IMG/VR virus record: IMGVR_UViG_3300045988_067813
Span: 1-64,000 of that record
Length of the DNA stretch: 64,000 bases
Source of the DNA: a virus
Strand: one strand, 5' to 3'
Part shown: positions 25,719 to 63,353 of the stretch, one piece after another
Layout of the letters: every line of letters starts with the position of its first letter
How positions within the stretch are numbered: the first letter of the stretch is position 1
The notes under the pieces: model-generated
Databases searched by the model: none
Seen by the model: only the letters and a program-made list of their open reading frames with translations
Told to the model about the DNA's origin: nothing
Translations under genes and position numbers: made by a program

Positions 25719-25750
25719 AACAAAAGAGCCTAATTGGCTCTCTTTTATTT
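25719..25750. terminator. Bidirectional terminator at the convergence of the early (+) and late (-) blocks
   Basis: AAAACAAAAGAGCC-TAATT-GGCTCTCTTTTATTT. A GC stem is flanked by an A-run and a T-run. Confidence 0.75.
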
Positions 25751-26602
25751 ATTCTTTTTATCATCACAGTTACAGTCATCTTTAGGAATCTCTGTGAACT
25801 TCAAGCAGTCAGGTAGGTCTTTACCTTCAATGATAGGCACATACTCAACCTTGAATTGGTGAAGTCTGAATATACCACTAGCTGAGTTTTCTGGAACAAC
25901 TCTTACCTTAATGTATTGACCAGCAGGTACAATGATTGTGTCAGACATTTCCATAGCACCATCAGATATACCAGTCATTTGCCAATGCACAGAGCGTTGT
26001 TTAACCATGTCTGTAGTATAGCTTTCTCCACTGTGATAGACTACAATCTGCATTGTGTTATCCTCTTGTGGGTTTAATGTAGTACCATCAGCACACCAAC
26101 GTAGGAACACACGGTACTGTCTATCTGTGAGCTGTCTACGCTTATCATCATTCTCAAAGTCCACACCAGTAGTAGAATCCATGTAGAGGTCAATGTCATA
26201 CTCTTTAGTAATAGGAGCATAGAATGTAGCAGAAGATACAGCAGAGTTACGAGAGTAGTTCGTGTGTACCTTACCCATATCTCCAATAGATGCTACATAC
26301 TCACCCATACACTGTACCATATCCCACAAAGCACAGATATTCTCAATGTAGTGGTTAAGCTGACAAGCTAGTTTCTTAATGAATGATGAGAAGAACTTAG
26401 GGTTATAGCACTTCTGTGATTCTGCCATACAAGCAAAACGTCCTACACCTTTGTTATTCTCTTCCACAAGCCTATCACAGTCAGCAATAGGAATATCTTC
26501 ACAGTCACAGCTATCATACCAGCATCTATCTTTAGGATTCTCATTGTAACTCTTGAAAGATGCTTCATTCAGTCTTGTGTTTTTGTTATCTTCGTAAGCC
26601 AT
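25745..26602 (-). CDS. Cys-ladder N-domain tail fibre/baseplate accessory protein (285 aa)
   Basis: CWYDSCDCEDIPIADCD...C...C...LAC...IC...C. C-terminal CNCDD. Last gene of the late operon. Confidence 0.7.
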   Translation of the reverse strand: MAYEDNKNTRLNEASFKSYNENPKDRCWYDSCDCEDIPIADCDRLVEENNKGVGRFACMAESQKCYNPKFFSSFIKKLACQLNHYIENICALWDMVQCMGEYVASIGDMGKVHTNYSRNSAVSSATFYAPITKEYDIDLYMDSTTGVDFENDDKRRQLTDRQYRVFLRWCADGTTLNPQEDNTMQIVVYHSGESYTTDMVKQRSVHWQMTGISDGAMEMSDTIIVPAGQYIKVRVVPENSASGIFRLHQFKVEYVPIIEGKDLPDCLKFTEIPKDDCNCDDKKNK

Positions 26603-27960
26603 TATCTACCAATCTTTCCTTGTTGTTTCCATGTACCATCTTTCCTTATAGCGTTACCAGAAGCAGAGTAAGGTGGAAGGTATACCCCTGTGCTGGTTGT
26701 ACCATAAGGTTTACCAGCGTCCTCAGCATTGATACTTGTATCTTGCTTACCTCTTTTTCTGATAATCATGTCAATCTTCTTGGTTGTGAATGATAACCAT
26801 TGACCACTATTTCTAATAGCCCAAGGTCTAATCTTAGCTACTTTGTCATAGAGGATTGTAATATCTCTAGTCTCAGTAGGCTCAATAGGTGCTGTTGGTG
26901 TATAGTAAGTGAATGTCTCACCACGAGAAGCATTACCAAAGAAAGCTAACTCAAATGATGAGTTTGGACCTTCTCCAGTTGGGTCATAGATAGTTGTTCT
27001 TCCTAGCCTATTACCTCGTGCATTAAAATCAATCCTACTACCTACCCCAGCAAGTACAAATGAACCTCTAGGAATGTCATAATGTTTGTTATACTTAGCT
27101 CCTTTATCATCACCTATATAAGTACCATCATAACTAAGGTTAGAACCAGAAGGTCTAGAATACACAGTAGTTGAATCACTATAGTTAGCACTTACACGTT
27201 GATAATAGTCAGTATCTACTACGGCTGTGGAAGTGATTAGTTTAATAGGATTTCCTGATGAATCTTCAAAGTATATAGAGTAATTTATACTGTAGACATC
27301 ATAAAACCATATACCCAATCCATCAGTATCCTCATAAGGAGCTATCCAAATACCAGGAGTAACCCCATTAAAGGAGGTTTCATAATAATTATGTACTAAT
27401 ATTCTTAAGTAAACAGCTTTTCCAGAAATGGTATATGACACAGGATAAGGTAGTCTTATATTAAGACCTGGATACATACCCCTTGCCCCTTTTTTACCTG
27501 AATAATTGTATTCAGGGTTTCTACCATATCGGATAGGGCTTGCTAATACTTCTACACCAGGCTGTTCTGTGAATACTTTAAATGCGTTAAAATAGTCATA
27601 AGAACCTGGTCTACTTGTGTTAAATTGAGCTACACCAGATATATTACCATAATCAAAGAAACCAGATTGATTTCTATAACTATTGACTTTCTCTAAATTT
27701 CTCCTATTAGCAGATATAAGGCTCATGTACTCAGCCATATCTCTATTGTATTTCATAACAGCATAACTGCTATTATAACTACTCTCAGAAGGAGTTCTTT
27801 TTTGAGATTCATACAATTCCCTTGCATTATAACCTTGGAATGTTTTTTGTGTCTCAGCTATTAAAGTATCAAATGAATCATAGCCTACCCTCACAGGAGA
27901 AGCTAAGTCTTGTCCTGTTTGGGCATCTTTATAATAGATATTATAATTAAACTTAGCCAT
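26602..27960 (-). CDS. Putative receptor-binding (carbohydrate-binding-like) protein, paralogous to the C-terminal part of 31278-32555
   Basis: AVVDTDYYQRV...PRGSFVLAGVGSRIDF...FFGNASRGETF aligns with AVNDIDYRQGF...PLGSLVYAGVGTKIDW...FFGNDFEGETV. Confidence 0.6.
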   Translation of the reverse strand: MAKFNYNIYYKDAQTGQDLASPVRVGYDSFDTLIAETQKTFQGYNARELYESQKRTPSESSYNSSYAVMKYNRDMAEYMSLISANRRNLEKVNSYRNQSGFFDYGNISGVAQFNTSRPGSYDYFNAFKVFTEQPGVEVLASPIRYGRNPEYNYSGKKGARGMYPGLNIRLPYPVSYTISGKAVYLRILVHNYYETSFNGVTPGIWIAPYEDTDGLGIWFYDVYSINYSIYFEDSSGNPIKLITSTAVVDTDYYQRVSANYSDSTTVYSRPSGSNLSYDGTYIGDDKGAKYNKHYDIPRGSFVLAGVGSRIDFNARGNRLGRTTIYDPTGEGPNSSFELAFFGNASRGETFTYYTPTAPIEPTETRDITILYDKVAKIRPWAIRNSGQWLSFTTKKIDMIIRKRGKQDTSINAEDAGKPYGTTSTGVYLPPYSASGNAIRKDGTWKQQGKIGR

Positions 27961-29084
27961 TAAATTCCTCCTGTAAGGTCATTCTCTGTGCTACCATTGT
28001 TTGTTCTAATAAAGGCATTACCGTCAGGTTGTCCTCCAAAGAGGTTGATATTACCTGTAGCAAGGTGTCTATTAGGTTTAAGATTACCCTTGAAGATAGT
28101 ATCTCCAGTTTGTTCCCAAGCACCAGAGCCTTTAAGGTCTTCAAGTAACTTAGTGAAAGCATCTTTAAGCTCATTGTACTGATTCACCGTAACATAGTTA
28201 CTTAGGTCAGGCTGAGGAATCTCCACAGAATTACCATTAGAAATGGTTAGCCTATTGTTTGAGATAGAGAGTGTCTGATTATCATTGTCTCTCTTAGCTT
28301 CAAGCACACCAAGTCTACGTTTAATATCTGCATCATTGTAAGGAGTAGGGGTAGGAATATCTACCTCTCCACCTCCATTAGATAACACAATCTTGTTGCC
28401 CTGTTTACTTATAGTTTGCTTGTCATTTCTAAGTGCCCATGAACCCATGTTTTGAACAGTAATATTATTACCATTCACAGAGGTTACTTTGTAGAACTCT
28501 GTGTTAGAAGCATCATTCCCTGACCAGTAGTCTTGAATAGTATCACCAACTTTAACTCCATCAGGGTTTATTAAATATGATTTTTGTATTGTAGTAGTAG
28601 CTCCTACTGCTCCAGATGATATATCTCCTTTAGCCCATCTAGTAACAGTATCTTTGTCTGTTCTATCCTCTAAAGCCTTGACTCTATTTCTTAATGCTGT
28701 GTCATCATAAGCAATACCAATAGTATCCTTATCATCAAACTCCACAGTCTTAGGCTGACCAGTCACAAAGTTATAAGTAAGTTTTACCTTATTACCAGTA
28801 CGACTAGCAGTTACTCCTGTAACAAAGTTATCTGTCTTACCCTCTAATGCTGTGAGCCTACGTTTAACATCAGTATCATTGTAGATAGTATCTCTGTCCT
28901 CTGGGAGTGTAATAGAGTTTCCCCCACTAATAGAAACAGTTCTATTGTTGATTGTGAGGGTTTGGTTATCTCTATCTTGTTTATTCTCTAAAGCAGTTAT
29001 TCTAGCTTTTAATGGAGCATCATCATAGGCTGTAACAGTAGGTGTTGGTTGTTGCTCATTCTTAATATAAGTAGTCTTTGACAT
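27960..29084 (-). CDS. Modular tail fibre protein (374 aa)
   Basis: Contains the [28 protein letters not shown] and DKDTV..ALE modules. Its C-terminal ATGNINLFGGQPDG.AFIRTNNGSTENDLTGGI is shared with 30718-31278. Confidence 0.75.
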   Translation of the reverse strand: MSKTTYIKNEQQPTPTVTAYDDAPLKARITALENKQDRDNQTLTINNRTVSISGGNSITLPEDRDTIYNDTDVKRRLTALEGKTDNFVTGVTASRTGNKVKLTYNFVTGQPKTVEFDDKDTIGIAYDDTALRNRVKALEDRTDKDTVTRWAKGDISSGAVGATTTIQKSYLINPDGVKVGDTIQDYWSGNDASNTEFYKVTSVNGNNITVQNMGSWALRNDKQTISKQGNKIVLSNGGGEVDIPTPTPYNDADIKRRLGVLEAKRDNDNQTLSISNNRLTISNGNSVEIPQPDLSNYVTVNQYNELKDAFTKLLEDLKGSGAWEQTGDTIFKGNLKPNRHLATGNINLFGGQPDGNAFIRTNNGSTENDLTGGI

Positions 29085-30715
29085 TAGTTTAACCTCGGTA
29101 TGTTGTAGTATTTATTGTCACTTTGGTTTTTCAGAACAACAGTTCCTTGCACAGATTGGATATAGAATCTCACATTTTTAAGTGTAAGATTTAACTTACC
29201 TATTACAACATCATTCTTTTTAACCTCAATTTCAATAGGCTCTGATGAATCAAGTTCTTCTTTAGTAATATAATGTGTGTAATACTCTGTATGAGAACTT
29301 AGCACAACACTCCATATAATTTTAGGTTTCAGAGAAACCATTGCTTTATTATTTGAGTCTTTCCAACTAGCATATATATTACTATCAAACCTAATACCGT
29401 TACTTAAAGTAGTATACCCATCAAAATCTACTATAGTGTTATTTGTTGATAGTCCTGTGATTCTGAAATTACTACCAGATATGTTAGATGCACCTACACC
29501 AGTATAGTTAAAATTACCTTCATAATCAAATAAGATACCTGCTTCCATAAGAAGGTTTCTCTGTTCAGTTCCATCATTATTCACAGCATAAGAAATACTA
29601 TCTTTAATAGCACTATCATATCTTTTATCTGATGTTATTGGTATATGCCTTGTACTACTTGGGTAAGGGAATGATAAATCCTTATTCAAAGCCATTTCAA
29701 TGTGGAATGTATTATCACTATCAAGGAATAACCCATTACCTTTAGCCTTATACTTAGTGTCTTTATCCTCTTTAGCTTCTAAAGCATTAAGTCTATTGAC
29801 CACAGAGGAGTCATCATAAGGTTGTACATTATTAGGCTGTGGTAATTCTACTTCACCCCCACCATTAGAGAGAATGAGCTTATTACCCTCTTTTGTGATG
29901 GTCTGTTTGTCATTAGGTAGAGTTACACTATTACCATTAGAGATACTTAACACACGAGAGCTATTATCTAGTGTGAGATTCTGATTATCTCTATCTTGCT
30001 TGGCTTCTAATGTCTCAATTCTATCAAATAATGCTTTATTAGGATAAGGTCTGGATTCTAAGTTATCTAACCTTTCCTTTACAGCCCTATCATCATATAC
30101 TGTGTCCTTATCTGGTTTGTCCTCTAAGGCTTTAACCCTAGCTTTTAAGGCTGTATCATCATAGGCTAAACTAATTGTATCCTTATCCTCAAATTCAACC
30201 TCTTTAGGAGCGCCATTCACAAAGGTATAGGTAAGCTTAACCTTATTTCCTTCTCTTGAAACAGTCACACCACTCACAAAGTTATCAGCTTTATCTTCCA
30301 CAGCTTGAATACGTCTACGGAGTTCAGCATCATTATACACGGTGTCTCTATCTTCTGGTAGGTTGATTGCATTACCATTACTGATAGTGATTGTTCTACC
30401 ATTGATAGCAAGGCTCTGTGTATCATTAGGAAGGGTTACTGTATTCCCTCTTGTAATTGTAAGTTCTCTTGTGCTTCTATCTAATTCAAGATTCTGTGGC
30501 TTCTGTACAGCTCCTCCAGCTCCTCCCATGAGAATCCAACTAGACCTATCAGGAGCTAGAGCATACATATTCCCATCAGGAGTTCTGAACAAATGGTCAA
30601 AGTCACCCATGAAAGTGTCAGGAAGACTATCCACAGGAGCAATCCAAGTGTCTTTAGGGTAAGTGCAATCTCTACAAAATGTATTGGGATTTCCTCCACA
30701 AGAATAACAACCCAT
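29084..30715 (-). CDS. Modular tail fibre protein with unique C-terminal head domain (543 aa)
   Basis: N-terminal CYSCGGNPNTFCRDC. Modules TITISNGNAINLP and [17 protein letters not shown]. Unique C-terminal region of about 210 aa. Confidence 0.75.
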   Translation of the reverse strand: MGCYSCGGNPNTFCRDCTYPKDTWIAPVDSLPDTFMGDFDHLFRTPDGNMYALAPDRSSWILMGGAGGAVQKPQNLELDRSTRELTITRGNTVTLPNDTQSLAINGRTITISNGNAINLPEDRDTVYNDAELRRRIQAVEDKADNFVSGVTVSREGNKVKLTYTFVNGAPKEVEFEDKDTISLAYDDTALKARVKALEDKPDKDTVYDDRAVKERLDNLESRPYPNKALFDRIETLEAKQDRDNQNLTLDNSSRVLSISNGNSVTLPNDKQTITKEGNKLILSNGGGEVELPQPNNVQPYDDSSVVNRLNALEAKEDKDTKYKAKGNGLFLDSDNTFHIEMALNKDLSFPYPSSTRHIPITSDKRYDSAIKDSISYAVNNDGTEQRNLLMEAGILFDYEGNFNYTGVGASNISGSNFRITGLSTNNTIVDFDGYTTLSNGIRFDSNIYASWKDSNNKAMVSLKPKIIWSVVLSSHTEYYTHYITKEELDSSEPIEIEVKKNDVVIGKLNLTLKNVRFYIQSVQGTVVLKNQSDNKYYNIPRLN

Positions 30716-30717: not shown

Positions 30718-31278
30718 TTAGATACCTCCTGTTAAGTCGTTTTCTGTACTTCCGTTATTAGTACGGATAAAGTATTGTCCGTCTGGTTGACCACCGAACA
30801 AGTTGATATTACCAGTAGCAATATTTCTGTTAGGTACAAAGTCACCATCTAGTCCACCTTGCCAAGCTCCACTAGCTTGTAAGTTGTTTATAATCTTATT
30901 TAAAGCTCTCTTAAGCTTCTCATTCTCTGCTCTTAAATCAGCATCATTGTAGGGTTGTGAAGGACTAGGAATGTTCCCTGTAAAACTAATAGTACCATCT
31001 TTAGAAATACTAATTAAGTTACCTGCTTTATAGGTAGGAGCAGTAGAACCTCCACCAGCATTATTAGCTAACCAACATAGCTGATTAGATACATTCTTAT
31101 TGAAACACCACTGTGAGTAGGCAAACTTGGCTGTTTGGTCTACAATCTCACACATTTGGCTATCCCTAAGAACTAGAGCGTGCATTTTTATTTTATCATC
31201 ATTCTGTGCTAAGAGTGATTGGCAAGCTGTCTTACCAACTACTATATCCTCACACTGACAGTTTACACAATCTGACAT
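30718..31278 (-). CDS. Cys-ladder N-domain short fibre protein (186 aa)
   Basis: SDCVNCQCED... plus the shared C-terminal ATGNINLFGGQPDGQYFIRTNNGSTENDLTGGI. Confidence 0.7.
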   Translation of the reverse strand: MSDCVNCQCEDIVVGKTACQSLLAQNDDKIKMHALVLRDSQMCEIVDQTAKFAYSQWCFNKNVSNQLCWLANNAGGGSTAPTYKAGNLISISKDGTISFTGNIPSPSQPYNDADLRAENEKLKRALNKIINNLQASGAWQGGLDGDFVPNRNIATGNINLFGGQPDGQYFIRTNNGSTENDLTGGI

Positions 31279-32555
31279 TAGTTATCTCCTAAACAATCAA
31301 AATCGCATGACATTAAGTCACATTCTTCTATAGGGGGTATAGGTTTTGGAGGTTCATGAAGGTCTACAGTTTCTCCTTCAAAGTCATTACCAAAGAAGTC
31401 CATCCACCAGTTATTATCTCCTCCACCATCAGTATCAATGTAGTTTACTCCAGGGTGGTTAGCTATAATCTCCCAATCAATCTTTGTGCCTACTCCTGCA
31501 TACACAAGAGAGCCTAGAGGAATACTGCTTTCATTTTTAGCATCAAAGCTATCCTCAGCACTGATGTACCCACCATTCATTACAAGTCTTGAACCTGGAG
31601 GGTTTTTAACAAGGGTTTTACTATTATTAAAACTAGCCCAAAATCCTTGTCTATAGTCAATATCATTCACAGCATTTACTACCATAAGATTGATAGGCTG
31701 GTCAGATTCATCTAAGAACTCAAAAGTACCAGTTACCTTATAGTAGTTACCCACATGGATTCTAATAGCACCATCACCATTTCTAACAATTATCCAGTTA
31801 CTACTCTCTGTTTGTGCGTGTGAACTTAGTTCATAACTATTGATAGTTACCCTTAAGTTGATGGTTTTACCACTACTAGTCCTTCCTACTCTTGTTAGAG
31901 TTGTGGATATTCCTGGATATAAGTCTGTAGAGTAGTAGTCCACTTGAGTATTATTATCAAAAGTGATACCCCCAGAAGCATAGTCAACACCATCTTTAGA
32001 GGTTGCTAGTGATAGTTTGGAGAAGTAAGAAAAACTACCAGTCCTAGAAGAATCAAAGTCGCCTGATACAAAGATGCCATCAACCTCTTCTACAGTAGGG
32101 TCTTTTTTCATTTCCTCTAACCGTTTCTTGGCTTTAGCCAATCTTACAAGTTGCTCTTCGTAGATGGCTTTAGCTTCGTTGTAGATACCTTTTTTATCAT
32201 TAGGAGTATTAGGCTCTTTCTGCTTGTACTTCTTAATCATGTCCTTGTTACGCTTTACTGTGATTGAGTTAGCTTCAATGATATTAGCTTTCATACAATG
32301 TAAGGTTACACACAAAGACTTAATCTTCTTCTGTAAGCACACCATACGTTGTAGTACATCACAGATAGTCTTGATAATCTTTCTTAATCTACACCAAAGC
32401 CTAAATACACCCTTCTGTGTATTAGGAACAACATCACACTGCTCAGAGTCTTTGATTATATCACCAGCACGCTTAATATCCTCTTGTGATTCATTCTTGT
32501 CACAGTATTTACCAGTGATTACTTTATCATCACAACGACAATCACAAACGTCCAT
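31278..32555 (-). CDS. Cys-ladder N-domain + coiled coil + receptor-binding-like C-domain (425 aa)
   Basis: ATG 32555 (MDVCDCRCDD) follows SD TAGGAGG. The C-domain is paralogous to 26602-27960. C-terminus CDLMSCDFDC. Confidence 0.7.
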   Translation of the reverse strand: MDVCDCRCDDKVITGKYCDKNESQEDIKRAGDIIKDSEQCDVVPNTQKGVFRLWCRLRKIIKTICDVLQRMVCLQKKIKSLCVTLHCMKANIIEANSITVKRNKDMIKKYKQKEPNTPNDKKGIYNEAKAIYEEQLVRLAKAKKRLEEMKKDPTVEEVDGIFVSGDFDSSRTGSFSYFSKLSLATSKDGVDYASGGITFDNNTQVDYYSTDLYPGISTTLTRVGRTSSGKTINLRVTINSYELSSHAQTESSNWIIVRNGDGAIRIHVGNYYKVTGTFEFLDESDQPINLMVVNAVNDIDYRQGFWASFNNSKTLVKNPPGSRLVMNGGYISAEDSFDAKNESSIPLGSLVYAGVGTKIDWEIIANHPGVNYIDTDGGGDNNWWMDFFGNDFEGETVDLHEPPKPIPPIEECDLMSCDFDCLGDN

Positions 32556-32563
32556 AAGACCTC

Positions 32564-32926
32564 CTAGCACTTATCACAGCTAACCTCACAAGGTGTAACT
32601 GGTTGTTCTTTTAATACACTCAGAACCTCTGCAATACTGTCATTTTGACATTTAACAGTACCACACAAGCTATCTACTTTCTTCTCTAAGCACTCTAGCT
32701 TTCTAATGATATAACACAAGAAACCTACAATGTTTTTGATTACACACCACACACCATAGAAGGCTTGTCTAATAGCTTCTTGAAGATTACACCACTCAGA
32801 GGTTGAGATTTTCCTCATTGCTGGTCTAATCTTTAGGTCATTTAGCTCTAGTAACTTAGCACAGTTCTCTGGTCTTGGCTCAACTTTCTCACACTCACAG
32901 TGCTTATTTAAACAGTTATCTGCCAT
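32564..32926 (-). CDS. Stand-alone Cys-ladder domain protein (120 aa)
   Basis: NCLNKHCECEK...WC...WC...LC...EC...LC...KC. Aligns with the N-termini of three other fibre-region ORFs. Confidence 0.65.
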   Translation of the reverse strand: MADNCLNKHCECEKVEPRPENCAKLLELNDLKIRPAMRKISTSEWCNLQEAIRQAFYGVWCVIKNIVGFLCYIIRKLECLEKKVDSLCGTVKCQNDSIAEVLSVLKEQPVTPCEVSCDKC

Positions 32927-39586: not shown

Positions 39587-39914
39587 TAGATTTCTCCTTA
39601 TTAAATAGTTCTTCTAGTTTACTATCCAATCCATGAATATAGTGATTACCTTGTAAGTTATCAAAGTATTCCTTCACAAGAGGTCTAGTCATTTCCCATT
39701 TCTCTTTTGCTGTGAACTCTGTTGAGTTATAAATCTGCAAGTATTCTGAGCGTAGGCTAGAGCGTTTAGCTCCCTTAGTAATTTCAATGAGCTGTTCTCT
39801 CTTACGATTTAAAAAGAATACTCCAAAACTACAAGCAGTCGTAATTAATAGAGTTAAACCTGTAACTACTGTTTGGTCTTCTAGGAGCTTTAATACAATA
39901 CTATTATTACCCAT
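39573..39914 (-). CDS. Single-TM membrane protein (holin-like/lysis regulator candidate)
   Basis: ATG 39914 follows SD AGGTGG. TM helix [20 protein letters not shown], then a charged C-terminal domain. Sits directly upstream of the amidase. Confidence 0.4.
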
Positions 39915-40236
39915 ATAGACCACCTGTTTCTATTTCTAGGATTGGGTCTTCTCCACCTTCTGCAAGTTTCTCAAGGTCTTTAAGGATTTCCTCTTTACCT
40001 TTACCCACACAAGGCATCTCAATAACCTTTTCTTCTGGAGTAGGTGTTGGTGTAGGAGTTACTCCACTACCGTTACCTTTTCCATTGTCAAGGCTACAGT
40101 CAAAGTCAATTTGTATTCCATCACACTGACCATCTAATTGCTCACAAGTTGCTTTAGGAATCTGTGAATAACGTTTAGACCAGTCAATGTATGAAATACC
40201 ACAGAGTTTATCTGCTTCATCTAATACATAGACCAT
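39907..40236 (-). CDS. Hypothetical Cys-containing protein with TPTPTPTP linker (109 aa)
   Basis: ORF with SD GAGGT. ATCEQLDGQCDGIQIDFDC cluster. Confidence 0.6.
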   Translation of the reverse strand: MVYVLDEADKLCGISYIDWSKRYSQIPKATCEQLDGQCDGIQIDFDCSLDNGKGNGSGVTPTPTPTPEEKVIEMPCVGKGKEEILKDLEKLAEGGEDPILEIETGGLYG

Positions 40237-40238
40237 GT

Positions 40239-41306: not shown

Positions 41307-41317
41307 AATAATTATAC

Positions 41318-41602
41318 CTAAAATTCATCATCTAGTAAACTCAAACACAAGTGAGTAAGGTGTGTAAAATCATAGCTAAATTCCTCTTTATCAAGCTGAA
41401 TTATGTTAGATTTTCTAAAGCAGATAACCTCTTTATCCTCAATCCTTAATGAGAAATCATCAGAGTGAATGAACTCACGAGCACCACCAGCATCATTACT
41501 ATAAATAAGCTGTCTCACAAACTGTTCTACAATGTCTTCTGCAAGGATTCTATTTCTCATTCTATGAACAAGGTCTTTTCTAATCTTCTTATTCTTGGGC
41601 AT
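41318..41602 (-). CDS. Hypothetical protein (94 aa)
   Basis: ORF in the late operon, overlapping the upstream gene. Confidence 0.55.
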   Translation of the reverse strand: MPKNKKIRKDLVHRMRNRILAEDIVEQFVRQLIYSNDAGGAREFIHSDDFSLRIEDKEVICFRKSNIIQLDKEEFSYDFTHLTHLCLSLLDDEF

Positions 41603-50251: not shown

Positions 50252-51607
50252 TTACGCTACGTCCTCAACGTTTCTACGGATTTCATAGAAGTTACCATTT
50301 TCATCACGAGACACAGTAAATGTAAGTGACAAGGTAATTTCACCTTCCGTACCAAACTCACGAGAGTTTTCAGTAATAAGGACATTGTTGAATACATAGT
50401 ATTCTTTAATTCCACGAGTGTTTTCAACTTCTTGAATAACACGGAAGTGAGTGTTACGGAGACGTTTGTCATTAGCAACAATCAATTCTACATCACGTTC
50501 ACCATTGTAAGTAACCAACAATTTCTCACCAATGTACATTGGGTTTACTAGCACAGTACCACGGTCATATCCATGATATTGTTGTGTCATAGCAATGAAC
50601 TCATCATCTTCAAGCTCAATACCTGGAGACATTGGCATACTAGACAAGTAAGTACATGCACAACGGTCTGATGAAACTGTGATTGTGTTACAATCTTCGT
50701 AGTAAAGGTCAGGAATCAACAATGAGCCATAACGTTTACCATCTACAGTGATTTCTTCAACAGTGAAGCTATCTGTCACAGGAACACCACTGGTCATTTT
50801 CTTAGACATAGATTGAAGTGGGTTCAACCAGTAGTCATTACATGAAGTAGTAGTTGCTGTAATTTCTTTAGTAATCTCAACTTGAGCTTTATCATATTGA
50901 CGACCAAAGCAACGAGCATCAGTGGCAGGCACAGAGACGTTATGTGTGAATGAAGTCAAACATGAAAGCAATACATTAGAGAACTTACGAAGCTCAGAAC
51001 GGTCATTCACAATAGCTGGTGAAGAGAATCCAATGTGACCTGTAAGAGCATCATCTCCCTTATAAGTTACCTCATAAGTTACAACAACACCGTGGTCAGT
51101 AGGTTTCCAACCTGTACCTGTCTGAGTCATTACTCTTGAATCTGCAAAGTCCACAGTACGAAGAACGTAACCTGGAGCTGATGTATTGAATGTGTAAGTG
51201 TACACATAAGAGTTTGTTTGAGCTACATCTTTAAAGTCAGATACAATAGCTTTAAACTCATATTTACCAGCTTTTGGTAATTTCAAGTATACCATGTTGA
51301 ACCCTAGAGCAAAGTCATCAGCATCAGAACGAACTTGGAACTTAGCAGAAGCCTTCTTATCAGCAGGGTTTACATACAAAGTACCAGTGTTCAAACACTT
51401 AATAGGGTTACAGTTGATTTGGTCTTCTGGCACATCTTTACGGACATAGCTCACAAGAGTTCCTGCTGGAATCTGAATTTGTTTGCTTGTTTTCCAACGT
51501 ACACAAGGACGAATCTCTTCTGTGATAGATACAATGATTTTAGCATCTTTATCTTGTGTGTTGTAACCGTACATAGGGTGTGACATATCTACAAAACAGT
51601 TAGACAT
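50252..51607 (-). CDS. Candidate large tail tube protein (451 aa)
   Basis: Directly upstream of the TMP. Beta-rich composition. No sequence motif recognised. Confidence 0.4.
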   Translation of the reverse strand: MSNCFVDMSHPMYGYNTQDKDAKIIVSITEEIRPCVRWKTSKQIQIPAGTLVSYVRKDVPEDQINCNPIKCLNTGTLYVNPADKKASAKFQVRSDADDFALGFNMVYLKLPKAGKYEFKAIVSDFKDVAQTNSYVYTYTFNTSAPGYVLRTVDFADSRVMTQTGTGWKPTDHGVVVTYEVTYKGDDALTGHIGFSSPAIVNDRSELRKFSNVLLSCLTSFTHNVSVPATDARCFGRQYDKAQVEITKEITATTTSCNDYWLNPLQSMSKKMTSGVPVTDSFTVEEITVDGKRYGSLLIPDLYYEDCNTITVSSDRCACTYLSSMPMSPGIELEDDEFIAMTQQYHGYDRGTVLVNPMYIGEKLLVTYNGERDVELIVANDKRLRNTHFRVIQEVENTRGIKEYYVFNNVLITENSREFGTEGEITLSLTFTVSRDENGNFYEIRRNVEDVA

Positions 51608-51842: not shown

Positions 51843-52415
51843 TTATAAACATGTGAATATTGAGAGCGTTGCAGGGAATGAGAACATTTCTACCTCATCT
51901 ACTAACTCATTAGAGAAGTCCTCTGGACAACCAATGTCTTGAACTTGCACACGGATTGGTAAGTACCAACCATCTAATGAAGCTACATCTTGAGCGAATG
52001 TCTTTCTCTGAATACCTCTCGGTGTTTTAACTTGGTGAACCAACATATTCTTAAGTTGGCAATGTACTTCTTCTCTATACTCTAGTTTACCCTCTGGGGT
52101 GTTCTCAATACAAACCTTACCAGTAGGAGGTGTAACTGGAGAGTAGTACACAGAGAAGTTTACATATACCTTAGAGAAACACTTAGCACTATTATCACAA
52201 GTAATATCAATGGCTAGGAATGGGAACTCCACACCTTGATTTAGTTGGAAATGCTCAGACGTTCCTACATGTTGGTTAAATTGTACGTCAAAGTTATCAT
52301 AACGTTTTCTTGGGTCTAGCTCATCTATATGGTCTGGTTGAATGAAGTAGTCAAGCACATCAGCACCATACATTTGTAGCCATTTTTTAATGTTGATATA
52401 CACAGCACTAATCAT
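51843..52415 (-). CDS. Neck/tail-completion protein (190 aa)
   Basis: Assigned by synteny between the HK97 gp10-like protein and the tail genes. Confidence 0.45.
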   Translation of the reverse strand: MISAVYINIKKWLQMYGADVLDYFIQPDHIDELDPRKRYDNFDVQFNQHVGTSEHFQLNQGVEFPFLAIDITCDNSAKCFSKVYVNFSVYYSPVTPPTGKVCIENTPEGKLEYREEVHCQLKNMLVHQVKTPRGIQRKTFAQDVASLDGWYLPIRVQVQDIGCPEDFSNELVDEVEMFSFPATLSIFTCL

Positions 52416-52894
52416 TTAGCTAATCTCCCTGGTATCTTAACTGTGCCCTTACTTCCCTGTGCATACAGATAATTTCTTCCTGGAGCTGTGTCCTTAGAAG
52501 TGTAATGAGCTGTTCCTGAACCTCTTCTCCCTGATGGTCTTTGAGCTTTATATATACCATAGAATCCACTAGTTGAGTCCACAAGGTTATCACTATCACC
52601 TACAGTATCAAAAGCTGTAAAGATAAAAGGGAAAGCAGGGTTGTACTTGTAACCCTTAAACATATAAGTATTTACATAGTACCGTTCTTTTCCTCTCTTA
52701 GTTGGAGGATAATCATTTCTATCAGCATACACAGAGAAGCCATCACCAATCTTCTTCATCTTGATTGAACGAACCATACGACCTGTTCTCACAGAGCCTA
52801 TAGCCTTGGCTTCTAGCATACCTGTCACAGTAAAGTCTACAAACTCTTTTGCAAACTCTATCCCTTTCCAGTCATGAATATCAATCGTGGTCAC
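52412..52894 (-). CDS. HK97 gp10-like head-tail joining protein
   Basis: EAKAIGSVRTGRMVRSIKMKKIG matches the T-G-x-L/M-R-x-S-I signature. Confidence 0.6.
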   Translation of the reverse strand: MTTIDIHDWKGIEFAKEFVDFTVTGMLEAKAIGSVRTGRMVRSIKMKKIGDGFSVYADRNDYPPTKRGKERYYVNTYMFKGYKYNPAFPFIFTAFDTVGDSDNLVDSTSGFYGIYKAQRPSGRRGSGTAHYTSKDTAPGRNYLYAQGSKGTVKIPGRLAK

Positions 52895-53381
52895 GAGTAA
52901 TCACCCCCTGTAGTTGTTTTACATAAGGTTTACACTCTAAGAGTAGCTGTTCACTTTCACGTCCAGCAAGTCTCTCACCAGTTAATTTCACATCCCAGCA
53001 ACCAGGAAGAATCTCATACGTTCTACTAGCTACCACTTTCCAAAATAGATAACCAGCATCTTCTGGGCAACTAAATCTGTTACACCTTGTAGAAATTCTC
53101 TGTAATATGTAATACCCATGCTTAATGTCAAAGTCACAAGCATGAGATTGATTATGTAATGAAAAATAAAATGTTTCTAGCTGTCTTGAAGTCTCTAAGC
53201 CATGCGTTGTTGTAGCATCACTCTCAGCACCTCTTGACGTTGGCATGTGGTCTACACACTTTAAATGCTCCACTTCTTCCCATAAACACTTCATTACTTG
53301 CCTACTATTCTCATCATAAGTGGGAGTAGCAGTACCTTGTCTTAACACAAGGATTTCCTTATTATTCCAAGGGAGAGCCAT
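52881..53381 (-). CDS. Head-tail connector candidate (166 aa)
   Basis: Assigned by synteny. SD TAAGGAGG. Confidence 0.45.
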   Translation of the reverse strand: MALPWNNKEILVLRQGTATPTYDENSRQVMKCLWEEVEHLKCVDHMPTSRGAESDATTTHGLETSRQLETFYFSLHNQSHACDFDIKHGYYILQRISTRCNRFSCPEDAGYLFWKVVASRTYEILPGCWDVKLTGERLAGRESEQLLLECKPYVKQLQGVITRDHD

Positions 53382-53391: not shown

Positions 53392-53694
53392 TTATAGGGT
53401 CATCTCATTGTCCGTATTGGTATATGTACTCTCCATGTTATCTGGAACTTCCTCAAATTGGTTGCGAATATTTCCATCTTTGTCTGTGTATTTTAGGTTT
53501 TTCAAATACTTACCTAGAATATCGTCTACTGGATATACCTTATCTTTTTCAAAGATATAAAGACGACCACTATAATAAGTACGATACACAGTCTTATAAG
53601 TCTCCACACCATTGATTGAACGTCCAGTACCACACTTTGAACAGCCATAAGAGCGTGACTCTCTAGCATATTCACCATTATATCTTACTAACAT
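53392..53694 (-). CDS. Small neck-region protein (100 aa)
   Basis: ORF with a GCSKCGTG knuckle, overlap-coupled to the upstream gene. Confidence 0.5.
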   Translation of the reverse strand: MLVRYNGEYARESRSYGCSKCGTGRSINGVETYKTVYRTYYSGRLYIFEKDKVYPVDDILGKYLKNLKYTDKDGNIRNQFEEVPDNMESTYTNTDNEMTL

Positions 53695-54473
53695 TCTTTC
53701 CTTCTTCCAATGGTCAAATACATATTATCTGTGTAAACCCTCTTACACAGTGATAGTGAACTTAACGTTTGTAATGCCCATGTATTTATGAGCTTCACAT
53801 AATACCTATCAATACTTGTTTGGTCTACCGTCCATTCTCGTACAATATAGTCTACTGATTTCTGCTTAAGCACAGCTCCTACAGCCAATCTATCCATATT
53901 AGCACACTCATCTAAAGTACCACAGTCATTCTGATAGGCAATAAAGATATTTAGGAAGTGACACATTGCATCATACACACAATCAGGTAGAGTTTCAGAG
54001 GTATACCCAGCTTCATAGTCAAGCACAAGTTTATACTCAGCTTCACACGAACAAGGGTCACAGCATTTACAGCAAGGACTTAGCTCATCAGTTACATTCA
54101 CAAGGATTGTACCATCTACAAAAGACCAATTCCATTTATCTGTATCTAGCTCATACTCTTCACGCTCAAGACCTTTTCTCTTGTGCATATACACCTTAAG
54201 TGTGGTAGGGTCAAAACCTTTCCAATAGTAAGGCTTAACCTCCACCATAGCATCACACCCACAGAGGTGAAAACTCGTGAGTGGAATTACTTCATGTCTT
54301 AAGGCTCTTAGTATTGTCGAACATTCACCATCAGTCCAACAGAGCAATCTAGCAAGGACACGGAGAAAGCTCTCCATGTACCTTTGCATAGTTGCACCAT
54401 CATCACAGTCAAAACAACCACAACGTTCTTGAAGATTTTGAGTAATCTTGATTAGTTCAAGAGCTGGTTGCAT
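53688..54473 (-). CDS. Very Cys-rich head-associated protein (261 aa)
   Basis: Immediately after the MCP, with SD TAAGGAG. I counted 19 Cys, including RCGCFDCDD and SPCCKCCDPCSCE. Confidence 0.6.
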   Translation of the reverse strand: MQPALELIKITQNLQERCGCFDCDDGATMQRYMESFLRVLARLLCWTDGECSTILRALRHEVIPLTSFHLCGCDAMVEVKPYYWKGFDPTTLKVYMHKRKGLEREEYELDTDKWNWSFVDGTILVNVTDELSPCCKCCDPCSCEAEYKLVLDYEAGYTSETLPDCVYDAMCHFLNIFIAYQNDCGTLDECANMDRLAVGAVLKQKSVDYIVREWTVDQTSIDRYYVKLINTWALQTLSSLSLCKRVYTDNMYLTIGRRKEC

Positions 54474-54484: not shown

Positions 54485-55672
54485 TTATTTAGCAGGGATT
54501 GTAGCCATTGGGAATGGGTTAAGACCTGTAAGAAGACCTTGGATACGTTCAAATACCACAGCAGGGCAAGTTTGCTCAAGAGGAATGTTTGCCACAAGAA
54601 GGTGAGAGATATGTGAGTTAGTGTGTACCAAACCGAAGTTTTCATACTTGTCACAGATTACTTCACACCCTGGTTTTGAAACATCTTCTGTACGAACTGT
54701 GTGGATTGAAGATTGAGGTACGAACAAGTCGTATTGAGTCAATGCTTCTACACGAGCCAAGTCAATTACATAGGCTTCACCAGTCATTGTTTGTTCAAGG
54801 TCATAAGGCAAGTGGTAAGATACACCGAATGGGATACCCTTGAATGAGATAGACTCACCATTCACAGACCAACCTTGAGGTAATTTACCATCTTTACCAG
54901 GTACAATTTCAGCTTTGATTCCACGAAGAGTTAGTGGGTGTACATAGATTTTGTAACGAGCTGATTGGTTATCCAATACATCTAGGTAGCAAGCTACTTG
55001 ACGGAAAGCACCAATAACTGAACCAGAAGCATCAATAGGAGTTACCCCTGGGTGAGACATCATTTCAGCCACACCAGCAAAAGGACGTAGACCTTGACCA
55101 CTAAAGTTCAACATACCTTGAACGATATGACGTTGAACGATAAAGGCGAATGTGTACCATGCCATGAACTGTTCTGCTTCTTCATAAGACATACCCAAAC
55201 GTTGGAAGATATTGATAAGGTCTCCTTGTTTGAAGTGCATCTTGTCTTTCATCAAGCGGTCAAGACGAGTTTCACAGTCTTTAAAACATAGGTAACGTAC
55301 AGGAGTAGCATCACCAGTAGCTTGCATAGTGAATTTCTCAGTAAAACAGCAGGCATCAGAATTGTCATTAGCAAAGTCTGGAGCTTTTGTTCCCCAAGTA
55401 ATTCCCTCGATAACCCAGTCACCGTTCTTAGCTTGTCTCAAAGCACCAAAACTTGATTGCTCAAAACGCTTAAGAATGTCGTTAACTAGTTCATCACCCA
55501 TACCAACTTCTCTTAGTGAGGGTACTGCTTTAGACCAGTCACGAGAGATACCGAATGGGATTTTACCATCTTCATTAGTGAAGTTTTCTTTAGTTGCTAG
55601 TTGGGCTTTAGTACGCTCATACAAGTTGTCAATAGCTTCACCCAACAAAATATCAAAATTAGTTGTACTCAC
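54485..55672 (-). CDS. Major capsid protein (HK97-fold candidate); GTG start
   Basis: GTG 55672 follows a perfect SD GGAGGA at 7 nt, one nt after the upstream stop. About 395 aa, positioned after the protease/scaffold. Confidence 0.7.
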   Translation of the reverse strand: MSTTNFDILLGEAIDNLYERTKAQLATKENFTNEDGKIPFGISRDWSKAVPSLREVGMGDELVNDILKRFEQSSFGALRQAKNGDWVIEGITWGTKAPDFANDNSDACCFTEKFTMQATGDATPVRYLCFKDCETRLDRLMKDKMHFKQGDLINIFQRLGMSYEEAEQFMAWYTFAFIVQRHIVQGMLNFSGQGLRPFAGVAEMMSHPGVTPIDASGSVIGAFRQVACYLDVLDNQSARYKIYVHPLTLRGIKAEIVPGKDGKLPQGWSVNGESISFKGIPFGVSYHLPYDLEQTMTGEAYVIDLARVEALTQYDLFVPQSSIHTVRTEDVSKPGCEVICDKYENFGLVHTNSHISHLLVANIPLEQTCPAVVFERIQGLLTGLNPFPMATIPAK

Positions 55673-55673
55673 T

Positions 55674-56750
55674 TTATTGTCCTCCAAAGCGAACACGTCC
55701 AAAACGGTTCACAGGTTGTTCTTCTTTGATTTCTGCTTTTTCTACCACAGGGTTAGCTTTTTCTAACAATGTAGCCAATTTAGCAAGTTGCTCATCTACA
55801 ACATTTTCACTAGCTTCTTTTTCAGCCACTTTAGCTTTCAACTCAGCATTTTCTGTTTTAAGGGCTTCAACTTCTGTAGTCAACGCTTCGATAGATGCGA
55901 TAGCTTGTGCTAATGTATCACCTTCAACAGTAGATTGTTCTTCTTTAACTTCTTCTACTGCTGGTTTTTCAACTTCTGCAACTTCCTCTGTAGCAACTAC
56001 TTCTTCTGTAATTGCTTCTTCTGTAGATACTTCTGCTGAAAGGTGAGCAAGCACTTTATCTAGAATTTCTTTCTTATTCAAGTGTTCTTCCTCATTTCTT
56101 ACTAATAGTGATGGCTCATATCCACCACTCTTTGCATTTCCTGGATTTCCCACAAAGGAGAATCCTGTAATTTCAATTTCGTCTGTGATTGGTACGTCAA
56201 TATCCCCACCATGCTCAATGTTATAAACAACTAGCTTGGCATATTCTTCAATGTCACTGTCTTGTATCTCTTTAGCATACCACAGAAACTCTGATGAAAT
56301 GGCAAAAGGCTCATCTTGTAAGATAAGGTCTTTCATGTTGCTCAATTCTAGATTTACATGGGGTTTTACCAATAGGTCATAACGACCAGTCTCATCTTGT
56401 ACCAATTTAAGGTCTGATTTTCTAAAATAACCTTCTCTAACAGGGTAAGAGTTTAAATCTCTGTGTCCTGTAGAGACATATCCTTCAAAAGTACCATCAA
56501 TACTGTCATACCATTTCTTGAGTGTACCTTTACACAAATACAAACGAATGGTGTCGTCTGTATAGAGCACAGAACCCTCTGATAGTAGTGTCATGTACCC
56601 TTCTGAATTATCAACCTTATCCACAGACAGACGTTCTACCTCTTGCTTGTGAGCTGAGAGGTTCATCATTGCATCAAGATTATCTTTCTTCTCAATATAG
56701 CTATTGATTTCATTCATAATTCTCTCTGCTATCTGTGTTTTAACTGGCAT
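55674..56750 (-). CDS. Prohead protease / scaffold fusion candidate
   Basis: The N-terminal half has VSTGHRD and AISSEF (His/Ser candidates). The C-terminal half is an acidic coiled coil (EALTTEVEALKTENAELKAKVAEKEA). Confidence 0.5.
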   Translation of the reverse strand: MPVKTQIAERIMNEINSYIEKKDNLDAMMNLSAHKQEVERLSVDKVDNSEGYMTLLSEGSVLYTDDTIRLYLCKGTLKKWYDSIDGTFEGYVSTGHRDLNSYPVREGYFRKSDLKLVQDETGRYDLLVKPHVNLELSNMKDLILQDEPFAISSEFLWYAKEIQDSDIEEYAKLVVYNIEHGGDIDVPITDEIEITGFSFVGNPGNAKSGGYEPSLLVRNEEEHLNKKEILDKVLAHLSAEVSTEEAITEEVVATEEVAEVEKPAVEEVKEEQSTVEGDTLAQAIASIEALTTEVEALKTENAELKAKVAEKEASENVVDEQLAKLATLLEKANPVVEKAEIKEEQPVNRFGRVRFGGQ

Positions 56751-59099: not shown

Positions 59100-59106
59100 T
59101 TCTTAC

Positions 59107-60450
59107 CTACACAATCAAATTTTTCTTCAAATAGGCTTCTGCCATATTCTCATCAATACCTTTGAGTCTATCATAAACATCAAGGATATAAATGTCATTA
59201 TTGTAGTTGTAGTTTGTTGTAAACTCATAACTATCAAACTTAATATGTTCTGTCAGCCCAGTAGCGTTTTGGAGCAACTTAACAATCTGCCCAATGAAGT
59301 GGTCACGCATTGGAATAATGGTGTTCTTCATAGAGTTATCAATGATACTGTAAGTACCAATGTTAGACACAGTTTTGTTAAGGTCAAAGAGACGTGCTGG
59401 AACTCCAAACATTTGACAGATAATAGCTGGAACATACTGTGATAGGTAGTCCAAGAAATCTGTAGCTTTTGTATCACGCTCAAGTTGCTCAAGGTTTTGG
59501 AAGTTTCCTGAATACACAATGGCATCATTGAACTCTGTCTCAGATAGCTTCTCTGCAAAAGCATTCATATCTTCCACAATCTTCTTGTTACGCTCTTCTT
59601 TGGCTTGTCTACCCATATCAAGTAAATCACCACTTCCGAAGGACGTACCTTGCTCTACACTTTCCTCAATCTGTTCTTCTAGTGTATCCTTGGCTTGCAA
59701 TGCAATAGTACCAATACCATTCCTAGAAATATCATAGTTCATACGATTCAGAATGTTGAGGATAAGTTCAACACGCTTACGGTCTTTAAGCAATGGAGAC
59801 ATACAGAATACTTGAGAGGTATCTAACCTCACACAAGCGAATTGGTCTTCTGTAACAACCATTACCTCATTCTTGAACCGTTTAGGGTCTTTTAGAATTT
59901 CCTTAATATCGTCCTCAGAATAATCACTAGCTACTCTAGGATTCCCTGTCTTGCGGTCATAAGGTGTCACAAAGATATTATTATTTTTAATCAAGTATGT
60001 AAGAGTCTGTCTAAGCACAGGCATCTTAGGATAATCAATCACACAAGCAAGAATATCTTTAGGGTGAACTCCCACAAGACCATCACCAGTGTTTAGGATT
60101 CCATAATAACCATACTTACGATAGCCTTTGGCTACTTGTTTTAACACATCATAGTTTCGCTGACCATTGTAGTTATGTGCATATAGATACTTTCTGAGTG
60201 TTTCGTCCTTAGTGAAGTCTTCTGTGGTTAGATAGTTTGTAAACATATAGTTCACAATGTTATCTAGGATATAATCAACATCAGGAAGGTCAAGAGCTAG
60301 TTTTTCAATGTCCTCTAGATTCTCACCTACTGGTGAACCTCTAAAACCTGAACTTTGAAAAATTAGCCTATCTTTATACTCAGCATTGAAGTATCTATCC
60401 ATTGCACAAGAGCCACCACAGTCATCTTTTTTGCACTTTCCACAGCTCAT
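59107..60450 (-). CDS. Portal protein candidate (447 aa) with Cys-rich N-terminus
   Basis: Follows TerL with a TAATG overlap. Size is typical of portals. N-terminus MSCGKCKKDDCGGSCAMD. Confidence 0.65.
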   Translation of the reverse strand: MSCGKCKKDDCGGSCAMDRYFNAEYKDRLIFQSSGFRGSPVGENLEDIEKLALDLPDVDYILDNIVNYMFTNYLTTEDFTKDETLRKYLYAHNYNGQRNYDVLKQVAKGYRKYGYYGILNTGDGLVGVHPKDILACVIDYPKMPVLRQTLTYLIKNNNIFVTPYDRKTGNPRVASDYSEDDIKEILKDPKRFKNEVMVVTEDQFACVRLDTSQVFCMSPLLKDRKRVELILNILNRMNYDISRNGIGTIALQAKDTLEEQIEESVEQGTSFGSGDLLDMGRQAKEERNKKIVEDMNAFAEKLSETEFNDAIVYSGNFQNLEQLERDTKATDFLDYLSQYVPAIICQMFGVPARLFDLNKTVSNIGTYSIIDNSMKNTIIPMRDHFIGQIVKLLQNATGLTEHIKFDSYEFTTNYNYNNDIYILDVYDRLKGIDENMAEAYLKKNLIV

Positions 60451-63083: not shown

Positions 63084-63108
63084 TATCTTTACCTTTCTAA
63101 AAATTTAA

Positions 63109-63182
63109 TACACCCTACTGGACTTGAACCAGTGACACTACGCTTAGAAGGCGTATGCTCTATCCAACTGAGCTAAGAGTGT
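63109..63182 (-). tRNA. tRNA-Arg (anticodon UCU)
   Basis: Hand-folded cloverleaf: acceptor ACACTCT/AGGGTGT, D arm GCTC/GAGC, anticodon stem TACGC/GCGTA with loop CTTCTAA, T arm ACTGG-TTCAAGT-CCAGT. 74 nt, no encoded CCA. Confidence 0.8.
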
Positions 63183-63238
63183 GTATGGTGGGAAATACCA
63201 CCATTTAGTATTCACAAGAGTGATACCTATCAACCAAA

Positions 63239-63263
63239 AGTGCGTAGTGGGATTTGAACCCAC
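63239..63263 (-). pseudogene. Orphan tRNA 3' half (T arm + 3' acceptor strand)
   Basis: GTGGG-TTCAAAT-CCCAC-TACGCAC on the minus strand. Only about 18 nt separate it from the end of tRNA-Cys, so no D or anticodon arm is possible. Confidence 0.5.
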
Positions 63264-63281
63264 GAATTATCCAAACACATA

Positions 63282-63353
63282 AGAGCGTAGAGGGATTTGA
63301 ACCCCCGTTGGTGAGGTTGCAGCTCACAGCCTTAACCACTTGGCTATACGCTC
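63282..63353 (-). tRNA. tRNA-Cys (anticodon GCA)
   Basis: Hand-folded: acceptor GAGCGTA/TACGCTC (perfect), anticodon stem GTGAG/CTCAC with loop CTGCAAC, T arm GGGGG-TTCAAAT-CCCTC. 72 nt. Confidence 0.75.

Follow-up and report, generated by a model that had tools for sequence, protein, structure and literature searches.

Virions whose subunits are held together by disulfide bonds have been described in phages unrelated to one another. In the Agrobacterium myophage Milano, cysteine (Cys) accounts for 1.4% of the proteome and 2.4% of the structural proteins, most of the structural Cys are engaged in disulfides, and the virion is robust but labile to dithiothreitol (DTT) (PMC10491603). The Mycobacterium abscessus siphophage Jabs contains about 1,700 disulfides; some of these connect its candidate receptor-binding proteins with an insertion of the distal tail protein (Dit) that bears Cys, and disulfide formation during or after lysis was proposed by its authors (bioRxiv 10.64898/2026.07.24.740622). 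In the cyanophage Pam3, an N-terminal helical fibre domain is disulfide-bonded to Cys-rich baseplate regions, and DTT releases the fibres (PMC9942802). Here, the Cys-rich late proteins and the tRNA-Cys gene of a 64,000-nucleotide stretch of viral DNA (positions 1 to 64,000 of IMG/VR record IMGVR_UViG_3300045988_067813; the window) were analyzed. An earlier note on this DNA had suggested that Cys clusters in the virion proteins bind metal or staple the particle by disulfides after release, and had regarded either as undescribed for a Gram-positive siphovirus. A Cys-rich and presumably cross-linked virion is a general phenomenon already published for Milano, Pam3, and Jabs and is not categorically new, but literature searches turned up no report of a disulfide-networked virion among phages that infect Streptococcus or other Firmicutes. 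Four aspects are new: the phenomenon extends to a widespread clade of phages of oral streptococci and to lactococcal relatives of these phages; the adaptor and Dit bear CxC and CC clusters of very high density; four adhesin fibres carry an N-terminal module with seven Cys that is uncatalogued; and there is a quantitative tie to a universally retained tRNA-Cys. We put at about 0.5 the probability that these Cys serve lineage-wide cross-linking, with disulfides that form after lysis and join the fibre anchors covalently to the adaptor and/or Dit, both of which are rich in Cys.

Judged from the genes, the window appears to share two features with the disulfide-networked virions, namely raised structural Cys and Cys conserved among relatives. 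The resemblance to Milano extends to the overall Cys content (1.4% in both), the enrichment of structural proteins, and the conservation of Cys in relatives; in Milano, the neck and collar as well as the capsid and tail are cross-linked. However, Milano has a contractile tail and a Gram-negative host, bears no sequence relationship to the window, uses mostly single Cys positions rather than CxCxC or CC runs, and has no reported link to a tRNA-Cys. Jabs is a siphophage with disulfide links in the capsid, tail terminator, tube rings, and Dit, but it infects an actinobacterium, shows no homology to the window, and is without dense Cys clusters or a shared N-terminal Cys module in its fibres. The fibre-baseplate disulfides of Pam3 are the closest analogue for the module-hub pairing proposed here, although Pam3 is a myophage with other, non-homologous baseplate proteins and uses a single Cys (Cys28) in each fibre chain, compared with at least seven per chain in the window. 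The bonds of Milano were demonstrated by cryo-electron microscopy and DTT assays, and structural data exist for Jabs, whereas the particle encoded by the window is known from its genes and its bonds are inferred.

The closest described relative is Lactococcus phage P087. BLASTP against P087 revealed a homologous morphogenesis module with genes in the same order and with 22–36% identity (terminase, portal, capsid, adaptor, neck, tail protein, tape measure protein [TMP], Dit, and Tal), and the PHROG matches agree with the roles assigned to these genes. A tblastn search of a phage collection retrieved 15 Lactococcus P087-group (Teubervirus) records as the sole relatives (22–28% identity), and a megablast search with 16 kb of the window against 50,697 phage records gave zero DNA-level matches. 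Gene content and order thus appear to place the window among the phages with a P087-like (Teubervirus-related) morphogenesis module, but in a genus other than that of P087 because the two share no nucleotide similarity. Like the window, P087 encodes a tRNA-Cys, and the two phages have in common the majority of the Cys positions of the adaptor, the tail protein, Dit, and the major capsid protein. On the other hand, P087 has fewer Cys (0.99% in its late genes; 11 versus 19 in the adaptor and 9 versus 20 in Dit), and a hidden Markov model (HMM) of the N-terminal module of the window has no match in it. P087 also carries an annotated cysteine synthase gene (cysK; 17772–18707) and a thioredoxin-domain protein gene (13484–13720), alongside its tRNA-Cys and conserved virion Cys. 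Neither has a homologue in the window by BLASTP, and a motif scan detected no CxxC oxidoreductase-like open reading frame (ORF) there. During infection, the P087 cysK undergoes both transcription and translation, and the yield of P087 rises with sulfide (bioRxiv 10.1101/2021.01.05.425418). This 'auxiliary metabolic gene' might serve the Cys demand of the virion rather than sulfide production.

The ten Cys strings quoted in the earlier note were all located in the minus-strand ORFs to which it had assigned them, and its Cys counts were exact, both for the Dit-like protein (20 in 368 aa) and for the protein at 53688–54473 (19 in 261 aa). The Cys content of the late genes was 1.40%, or approximately 2.0% without four Cys-poor giants, and was well above that of the late genes of pneumococcal and mitis phages (Dp-1, 0.46%; SM1, 0.59%; MM1, 0.29%, with 0 Cys in its adaptors and 1 in its Dit) and of a host sample (0.70%), as the note had expected from the Cys-poor proteomes of streptococci. 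This comparison set is small, consisting of three phages, P087, and 20.5k host codons. The host sample comprised long ORFs of Streptococcus genome loci and was restricted to those of at least 200 aa because naive ORF calls inflate host Cys. Cys was the amino acid most enriched over this sample (2.0-fold; the runner-up was enriched 1.25-fold). Cys-rich ORFs at a S. pneumoniae locus (L100), considered as a possible related phage, proved to be spurious antisense ORFs.

The early genes of the window had a mean Cys content of 1.41%, equal to that of the late genes, but without clustering. The signal in the late genes is a concentration of Cys in about ten proteins. Across the 40 late proteins, the distribution of Cys was strongly over-dispersed (chi2 = 324, df 39, p = 1e-46), whereas no over-dispersion was seen among the early proteins (p = 0.54). 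Neighboring Cys no more than 4 residues apart numbered 37, compared with 23 +/- 3.8 in within-protein shuffles. Against the phage's own mean of 1.4%, binomial tails were 1.7e-8 for the 120-aa protein at 32564–32926, 8e-9 for the adaptor, and 4e-7 for Dit. These data bear on the possibility that most of the Cys serve for packing, as isolated and buried residues, or result from drift toward the AT-rich codon TGT, with the tRNA-Cys following composition. Cys enrichment has been reported in the capsid proteins of gut phages (bioRxiv 10.64898/2026.07.03.736451), where conserved, mostly isolated, and buried Cys were argued to serve hydrophobic packing; the equal mean of the early genes and the use of TGT for 82% of the phage Cys codons also agree with this explanation. 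However, the over-dispersion of the late proteins is extreme, runs of the CCKCCDPCSC type cannot be packing residues, and other low-GC streptococcal phages have only 0.29–0.59% Cys in their late genes. We consider packing or drift highly unlikely, and the conservation data given below also count against it.

The acidic context that the earlier note had seen around the clusters held in part: Asp was enriched 1.37-fold within +/-2 residues of Cys, but Glu was not, and the effect is modest. Trp was enriched 2.4-fold within the same distance. Four very large late proteins are nearly Cys-free, unlike their neighbors (TMP, 0 Cys in 1596 residues; the others, 1/1290, 0/452, and 0/374); they lie in 45446–50236, 34749–38621, and 26602–29084.

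The Cys-bearing proteins of the head, neck, tail, and lysis region are the following, with the Cys share of the densest in brackets.

59107..60450, minus strand: portal protein (phrog_16496 portal), 8 Cys
54485..55702, minus strand: major-capsid-like virion protein (P087 gp63 homologue, in the capsid position after the scaffold/protease gene), 8 Cys
53688..54473, minus strand: head-tail adaptor-like protein (phrog_16343 'head-tail adaptor'), 261 aa, 19 Cys (7.3%)
52881..53381, minus strand: neck or tail-completion protein, 166 aa, 7 Cys (4.2%)
51843..52415, minus strand: neck or tail-completion protein (P087 gp68 homologue), 190 aa, 6 Cys (3.2%)
50252..51607, minus strand: virion structural protein directly upstream of the tape measure gene (phrog_14985), probably the major tail protein, 10 Cys
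44340..45446, minus strand: Dit-like hub (homologue in AM6 annotated 'distal tail protein'; phrog_16596), 368 aa, 20 Cys (5.4%)
39907..40236, minus strand: 109-aa protein inside the lysis cassette, 5 Cys (4.6%), CEQLDGQCDGIQIDFDC

Conservation was examined with 19–55 unique homologues per protein from about 50 related contigs (6 for 39907–40236). In every Cys-rich protein, the Cys columns were far more conserved than other residues, and the clusters are conserved in homologues. Together with the raised Cys content, this means that the sequence-based outcomes named in the earlier note as refuting it did not occur. The N-terminal four-Cys motif of the portal (CGKCKKDDCGGSC, residues 3–15, nt 60406–60444) has the spacing C-x2-C-x4-C-x3-C, and the mean conservation of the portal Cys was 0.99 across 54 unique homologues. 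All Cys were invariant in the capsid-like protein (8/8, 48 homologues), the neck or tail-completion proteins at 52881..53381 (7/7, 32 homologues) and 51843..52415 (6/6, 26 homologues), and the probable major tail protein (10/10, 47 homologues). The five Cys of the protein at 39907..40236 were likewise invariant in the 6 homologues found; the earlier note had listed it among the virion proteins, and its cluster is present, but its gene is placed inside the lysis cassette, and it may or may not belong to the virion.

The two hubs carry the densest clusters. In the adaptor, these are CGCFDC (nt 54405–54422) and CCKCCDPCSC (nt 54045–54074, residues 134–143), and the final residue is also Cys. Among contig homologues that are 82–100% identical, 18 of its 19 Cys were invariant, compared with 59% of the other columns; across 20 homologues from a collection of 5.8 billion proteins, with identity down to about 52–53%, 17 of the 19 remained so. 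The number of Cys in the central cluster varied between 5 and 7 among homologues, the rest of the Cys pattern being retained. In Dit, where Cys are densest at residues 161–197 (nt 44856–44966), 18 of the 20 Cys were invariant among 48 homologues, compared with 33% of the other columns, and relatives at 51–60% identity retain 19–20 Cys. No relative of the adaptor was found in Pfam, NCBIfam, or the PDB by sequence and fold searches; its AlphaFold2 (AF2) model was mediocre (pLDDT 68), and no PDB fold matched it significantly, a faint similarity to the adaptors of LME-1 and PhiM1 (TM score of about 0.2) being all that was seen.

The alignments with P087 extend this conservation to 23–29% overall identity. 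Ten of the 11 Cys of P087 gp64 align with adaptor Cys (24% identity; hypergeometric p = 8e-12), as do all 8 of gp70 with the tail protein (29% identity; p = 2e-15), 6 of the 9 of gp74 with Dit (p = 1e-6), and 5 of the 7 of gp63 with the capsid-like protein (p = 2e-8); 3 Cys of the protein at 52881..53381 align with gp66. Such retention is a further point against packing or drift. From these alignments, the streptococcal clade appears to have added Cys on top of an older set common with P087.

Downstream of the lysis cassette, a second group of Cys-bearing proteins is encoded.

32564..32926, minus strand: 120-aa protein consisting of the Cys module and a C-terminal CEVSCDKC, 13 Cys (10.8%)
31278..32555, minus strand: 425-aa fibre-like protein, Cys module at residues 1–100 (nt 32256–32555; module HMM E = 7e-34); Cys 3.0% for 31278–32570 (430 aa)
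30718..31278, minus strand: 186-aa fibre-like protein, Cys module at residues 1–79 (module HMM E = 2e-27), Cys 3.8%
29084..30715, minus strand: 543-aa repeat-rich fibre protein (phrog_32123 repeats)
25745..26602, minus strand: 285-aa protein with a C-terminal CNCDD, Cys module at residues 24–115 (nt 26258–26533; module HMM E = 1e-32), Cys 4.6%

The proteins at 32564–32926, 31278–32555, 30718–31278, and 25745–26602 share an N-terminal module of 80–100 residues. Seven columns are invariant across the four paralogues and all seven are Cys, which again argues against packing or drift. The module core reads Met-x1-3-Cys-x2-4-Cys-x-Cys-x9-Cys...Cys...Trp-Cys-x9-Cys, with up to 3 further Cys downstream. 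In the 120-aa protein, 10 of the 13 Cys were invariant in 39 sequences, compared with 2% of the other columns, and 11 of the 13 Cys of the protein at 25745..26602 were invariant in 19 homologues. The parts that follow the module differ: the protein at 31278..32555 has a variable C-terminal part terminating in CDLMSCDFDC, and that at 30718..31278 has a C-terminal 'SGAW...GNINLFGG' domain with phrog_17155 on residues 112–186. The protein at 29084..30715 begins with a CxxC-x8-CxxC motif (nt 30665–30709).

A profile search of 1.84 billion representatives with the module yielded 66 clusters, 34 of them at E <= 1e-10. In these matches, the module is nearly always N-terminal, in proteins of 65–750 aa, and the seven core Cys are near-invariant. 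All members of the clade possess four module genes, which occupy syntenic positions and differ in the C-terminal parts that they encode, and fusions of the module to GbpC, BspA_v, or MucBP adhesin domains occur in distant relatives of 59 kb. A module with such interchangeable adhesin C-termini therefore behaves like the docking (anchor) domain of receptor-binding proteins. No match to it was found in Pfam, PHROG, or NCBIfam. The AF2 model of the 120-aa protein (pLDDT 78) consists of a Cys loop (residues 1–18) followed by a helical hairpin (helices 19–42 and 45–106); the predicted fold had no significant PDB match, and its sole BFVD matches were uncharacterised members of the same family. By these profile and fold comparisons, the module represents an uncatalogued domain family heading four fibre or adhesin proteins. 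A lipobox at the N-terminal Cys, as in a lipoprotein, was ruled out, there being no signal peptide or hydrophobic stretch. The distant 59-kb relatives (L126, 6654–11410; L127, 10001–14452) carry GH25 lysins in place of the choline-binding lysin of the window, one of them with a weak intein match; the GH25 lysins and the adhesin fusions suggest other streptococcal hosts.

The losses of Cys within the module are informative about partners. Core Cys K4 and K7 are lost jointly in three sequences whose nearest neighbors retain both, in at least two independent events, and module Cys K9 and K10 always co-occur; pairwise Cys partners are therefore indicated. This pattern bears on the possibility that the clusters are metal centres (Zn, or Cu/Fe thiolate) that stay reduced and fold or bridge subunits, or a Zn-to-disulfide redox switch. 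Several motif shapes are of this kind: CxxC-x8-CxxC in the protein at 29084–30715 and C-x2-C-x4-C-x3-C in the portal have the spacing of Zn Cys4 patterns, and the adaptor and Dit contain CxC, CC, and CxxC runs. Folding takes place in the cytoplasm, a reducing environment in which thiols that are clustered ordinarily bind metal, and both the range of 5–7 Cys in the adaptor cluster and the mild enrichment of Asp beside Cys are in keeping with metal binding. However, no Pfam or NCBIfam model matches any of the Cys-rich proteins, and no zinc-finger or metallothionein match was found in Pfam, NCBIfam, or the PDB. The first four Cys of the module (C-x2-4-C-x-C-x9-C) are spaced in a manner non-canonical for a Zn ribbon or knuckle, and the loss of K4 together with the distant K7, while K1–K3 are kept, contradicts a simple Zn(Cys)4 site formed by K1–K4. 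Thiolate-metal sites are also prone to oxidation in the aerobic, peroxide-rich habitat of mitis streptococci, and every Cys-rich phage virion of solved structure that has been found so far relies on disulfides. Metal centres are a serious although less likely explanation of the clusters; a combination of the two, with Zn binding followed by disulfide formation, is also possible. The dense stretches of the adaptor (residues 134–143) and Dit (161–197) are short parts of large proteins with no family match in Pfam or NCBIfam and do not qualify as metallothionein-like, and Fe-S clusters are unlikely in extracellular, air-exposed particles.

Two tRNA genes are located at the far end of the late block.

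63282..63353, minus strand: tRNA-Cys, anticodon GCA, discriminator U73, no encoded CCA (ARAGORN; Rfam RF00005, 64.8 bits)
63109..63182, minus strand: tRNA-Arg, anticodon UCU, reading AGA (ARAGORN; Rfam)

The tRNA-Cys(GCA) proposed in the earlier note was thus recovered by both ARAGORN and Rfam, and the connection it had drawn with Cys use was borne out by codon enrichment and by retention. Relative to the host sample of 20.5k codons, no codons were more enriched than TGT (2.7-fold) and AGA (2.2-fold), precisely those that the tRNA-Cys and tRNA-Arg of the phage read; two codons drawn at random from the 61 sense codons would give this match in approximately 1 in 1,830 cases. The tRNA-Cys was present in 50 of 52 related loci, the two exceptions being cut off upstream, whereas the tRNA-Arg(UCU) was present in 36 of 52. 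With intact tRNAs and codons over-used relative to this host sample, the pair would belong to the codon-compensating phage tRNAs; unlike in the general model, however, the driver here would be an amino-acid demand (Cys at twice the host level) and not synonymous-codon preference alone. It is well supported by the codon analysis, although not proven, that the tRNA-Cys serves the doubled Cys demand. No described link between a phage tRNA-Cys and virion Cys content was found in the literature.

Alternatively, the tRNA-Cys may be unrelated to the Cys clusters and may counter host defences that cleave or deplete tRNAs, or it may be the remnant of a larger array. Escape from tRNA-targeting defences is an established role proposed for phage tRNAs, and P087 carries five tRNAs. 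Moreover, a stretch between the two tRNA genes of the window (63225–63265, minus strand) resembles the 3' half of a third tRNA (ggttcaaatcccactacgca), and a tRNA-His(atg) is predicted in the matching place of the sister contig L002. On the other hand, a chance match of both tRNAs to the two most over-used codons has the low odds given above, and the tRNA-Cys is the sole tRNA kept in all related contigs bar the two that are cut off, besides being present in P087, which uses Cys similarly. We regard this alternative as distinctly unlikely. tRNA-Cys is probably uncommon among phage tRNAs. An HNH-endonuclease-like ORF with a CxxC...CxxC arrangement (63344–63961, minus strand) overlaps the 5' end of the tRNA-Cys by approximately 10 nt.

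Taken together, the conserved Cys point to a structural device focused on the ring-shaped joints of the particle (the portal N-terminus, adaptor, neck, tail tube, and Dit) and on the four fibre anchors. In the cross-linking model that we prefer, the Cys-rich proteins would assemble inside the reducing cytoplasm; lysis into an oxidising, H2O2-rich niche would then allow intra- and inter-subunit disulfides to form, and these would fasten the rings and tie the fibre anchors to the Cys-rich hubs by covalent bonds. Some of the four-Cys knuckles might hold Zn instead, or first. The tRNA-Cys of the phage would prevent stalling of late translation under a Cys codon use twice that of the host, and the tRNA-Arg(UCU) would serve the second over-used codon. 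Disulfides formed after lysis are favored because the structures of Milano, Jabs, and Pam3 give precedent for such Cys.

Several points weigh against this model. The S–S bonds are deduced for a particle that we know through its genes, and for most of the proteins membership in the virion is assigned solely from homology and the order of the genes. CCKCCDPCSC and HCCNGLPNCNNICECC, the densest clusters, look more like metal thiolates than like typical disulfide staples, the N-termini of the portal and of the protein at 29084–30715 resemble Zn knuckles, and the variable Cys number of the adaptor cluster is a poor fit for fixed intrachain pairs. The number of core Cys in the module is odd. The motif scan and BLASTP against P087 revealed no phage oxidoreductase and no sulfhydryl oxidase. 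As for the tRNA-Cys, the early genes average as Cys-rich as the late genes, so the demand it meets is not virion-specific, and the host codon sample is small.

A more specific version, in which a redox trigger would lock the maturing particle and which would be confined to phages of oral streptococci that produce peroxide, seems unlikely. The hub clusters and fibre-anchor modules would be kept reduced in the cytoplasm, perhaps loaded with Zn; after lysis, host H2O2 or air would oxidise them, and the adaptor and Dit rings and the four fibres would become one covalent network. The seven-Cys module would then act as a portable 'covalent docking' domain that permits swaps of adhesin heads, and the lineage would maintain a Cys supply chain, made up of the tRNA-Cys throughout and of cysK and thioredoxin in addition in P087.

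If the Cys do cross-link the particle, the strategy of disulfide-stapled virions extends to Firmicute phages; this clade is abundant in the human oral microbiome. The module could be a portable covalent docking domain for receptor-binding proteins and as such useful in phage engineering. The model also offers a concrete, testable rationale for a phage tRNA-Cys and possibly for the cysK of P087, and reducing agents or chelators used in purification may inactivate such phages.

The phage is a lytic siphophage of mitis-group streptococci with a genome of roughly 64 kb and a morphogenesis module distantly related to that of P087. The window is essentially its whole genome; an IMG/VR contig of 64,662 bp encodes proteins identical to those of the window. 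The early genes occupy the plus strand at 1–25.7 kb, and a tightly packed late block occupies the minus strand at 25.7–63.1 kb. At least 65 related contigs were found in IMG/VR, many of them with Human Microbiome Project sample numbers. A mitis-group Streptococcus was judged to be the probable host because a LytA-like lysin with Amidase_2 and choline-binding-repeat domain matches is encoded at 38618–39586; its best genome matches were in S. pneumoniae and a Streptococcus metagenome-assembled genome (62–66% identity), which corroborates the streptococcal host of the earlier note. The CHAP lysin was also considered as a host marker, but it gave one weak partial match in tblastn against phages and none in a genome scan, and the choline-binding amidase was used instead.

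As in P087, the lysis cassette (38618–41795) interrupts the structural genes, here between the Tal/tail-lysozyme genes and the fibre cluster, and contains the LytA-like amidase, the CHAP lysin (40239–41306), and small holin-sized ORFs. In the early region, a plus-strand ORF (14997–15497) is 32% identical to P087 gp77, a gene of the baseplate block of that phage, and has a 72%-identical copy in the early region of the relative L126. A 1.2-kb contig, CYGL01007963.1, of NCBI assembly GCA_001292545.1 carries two module genes of this clade, the product of one being 80% identical to the 120-aa protein, which suggests phage DNA within the assembly of a bacterial isolate.

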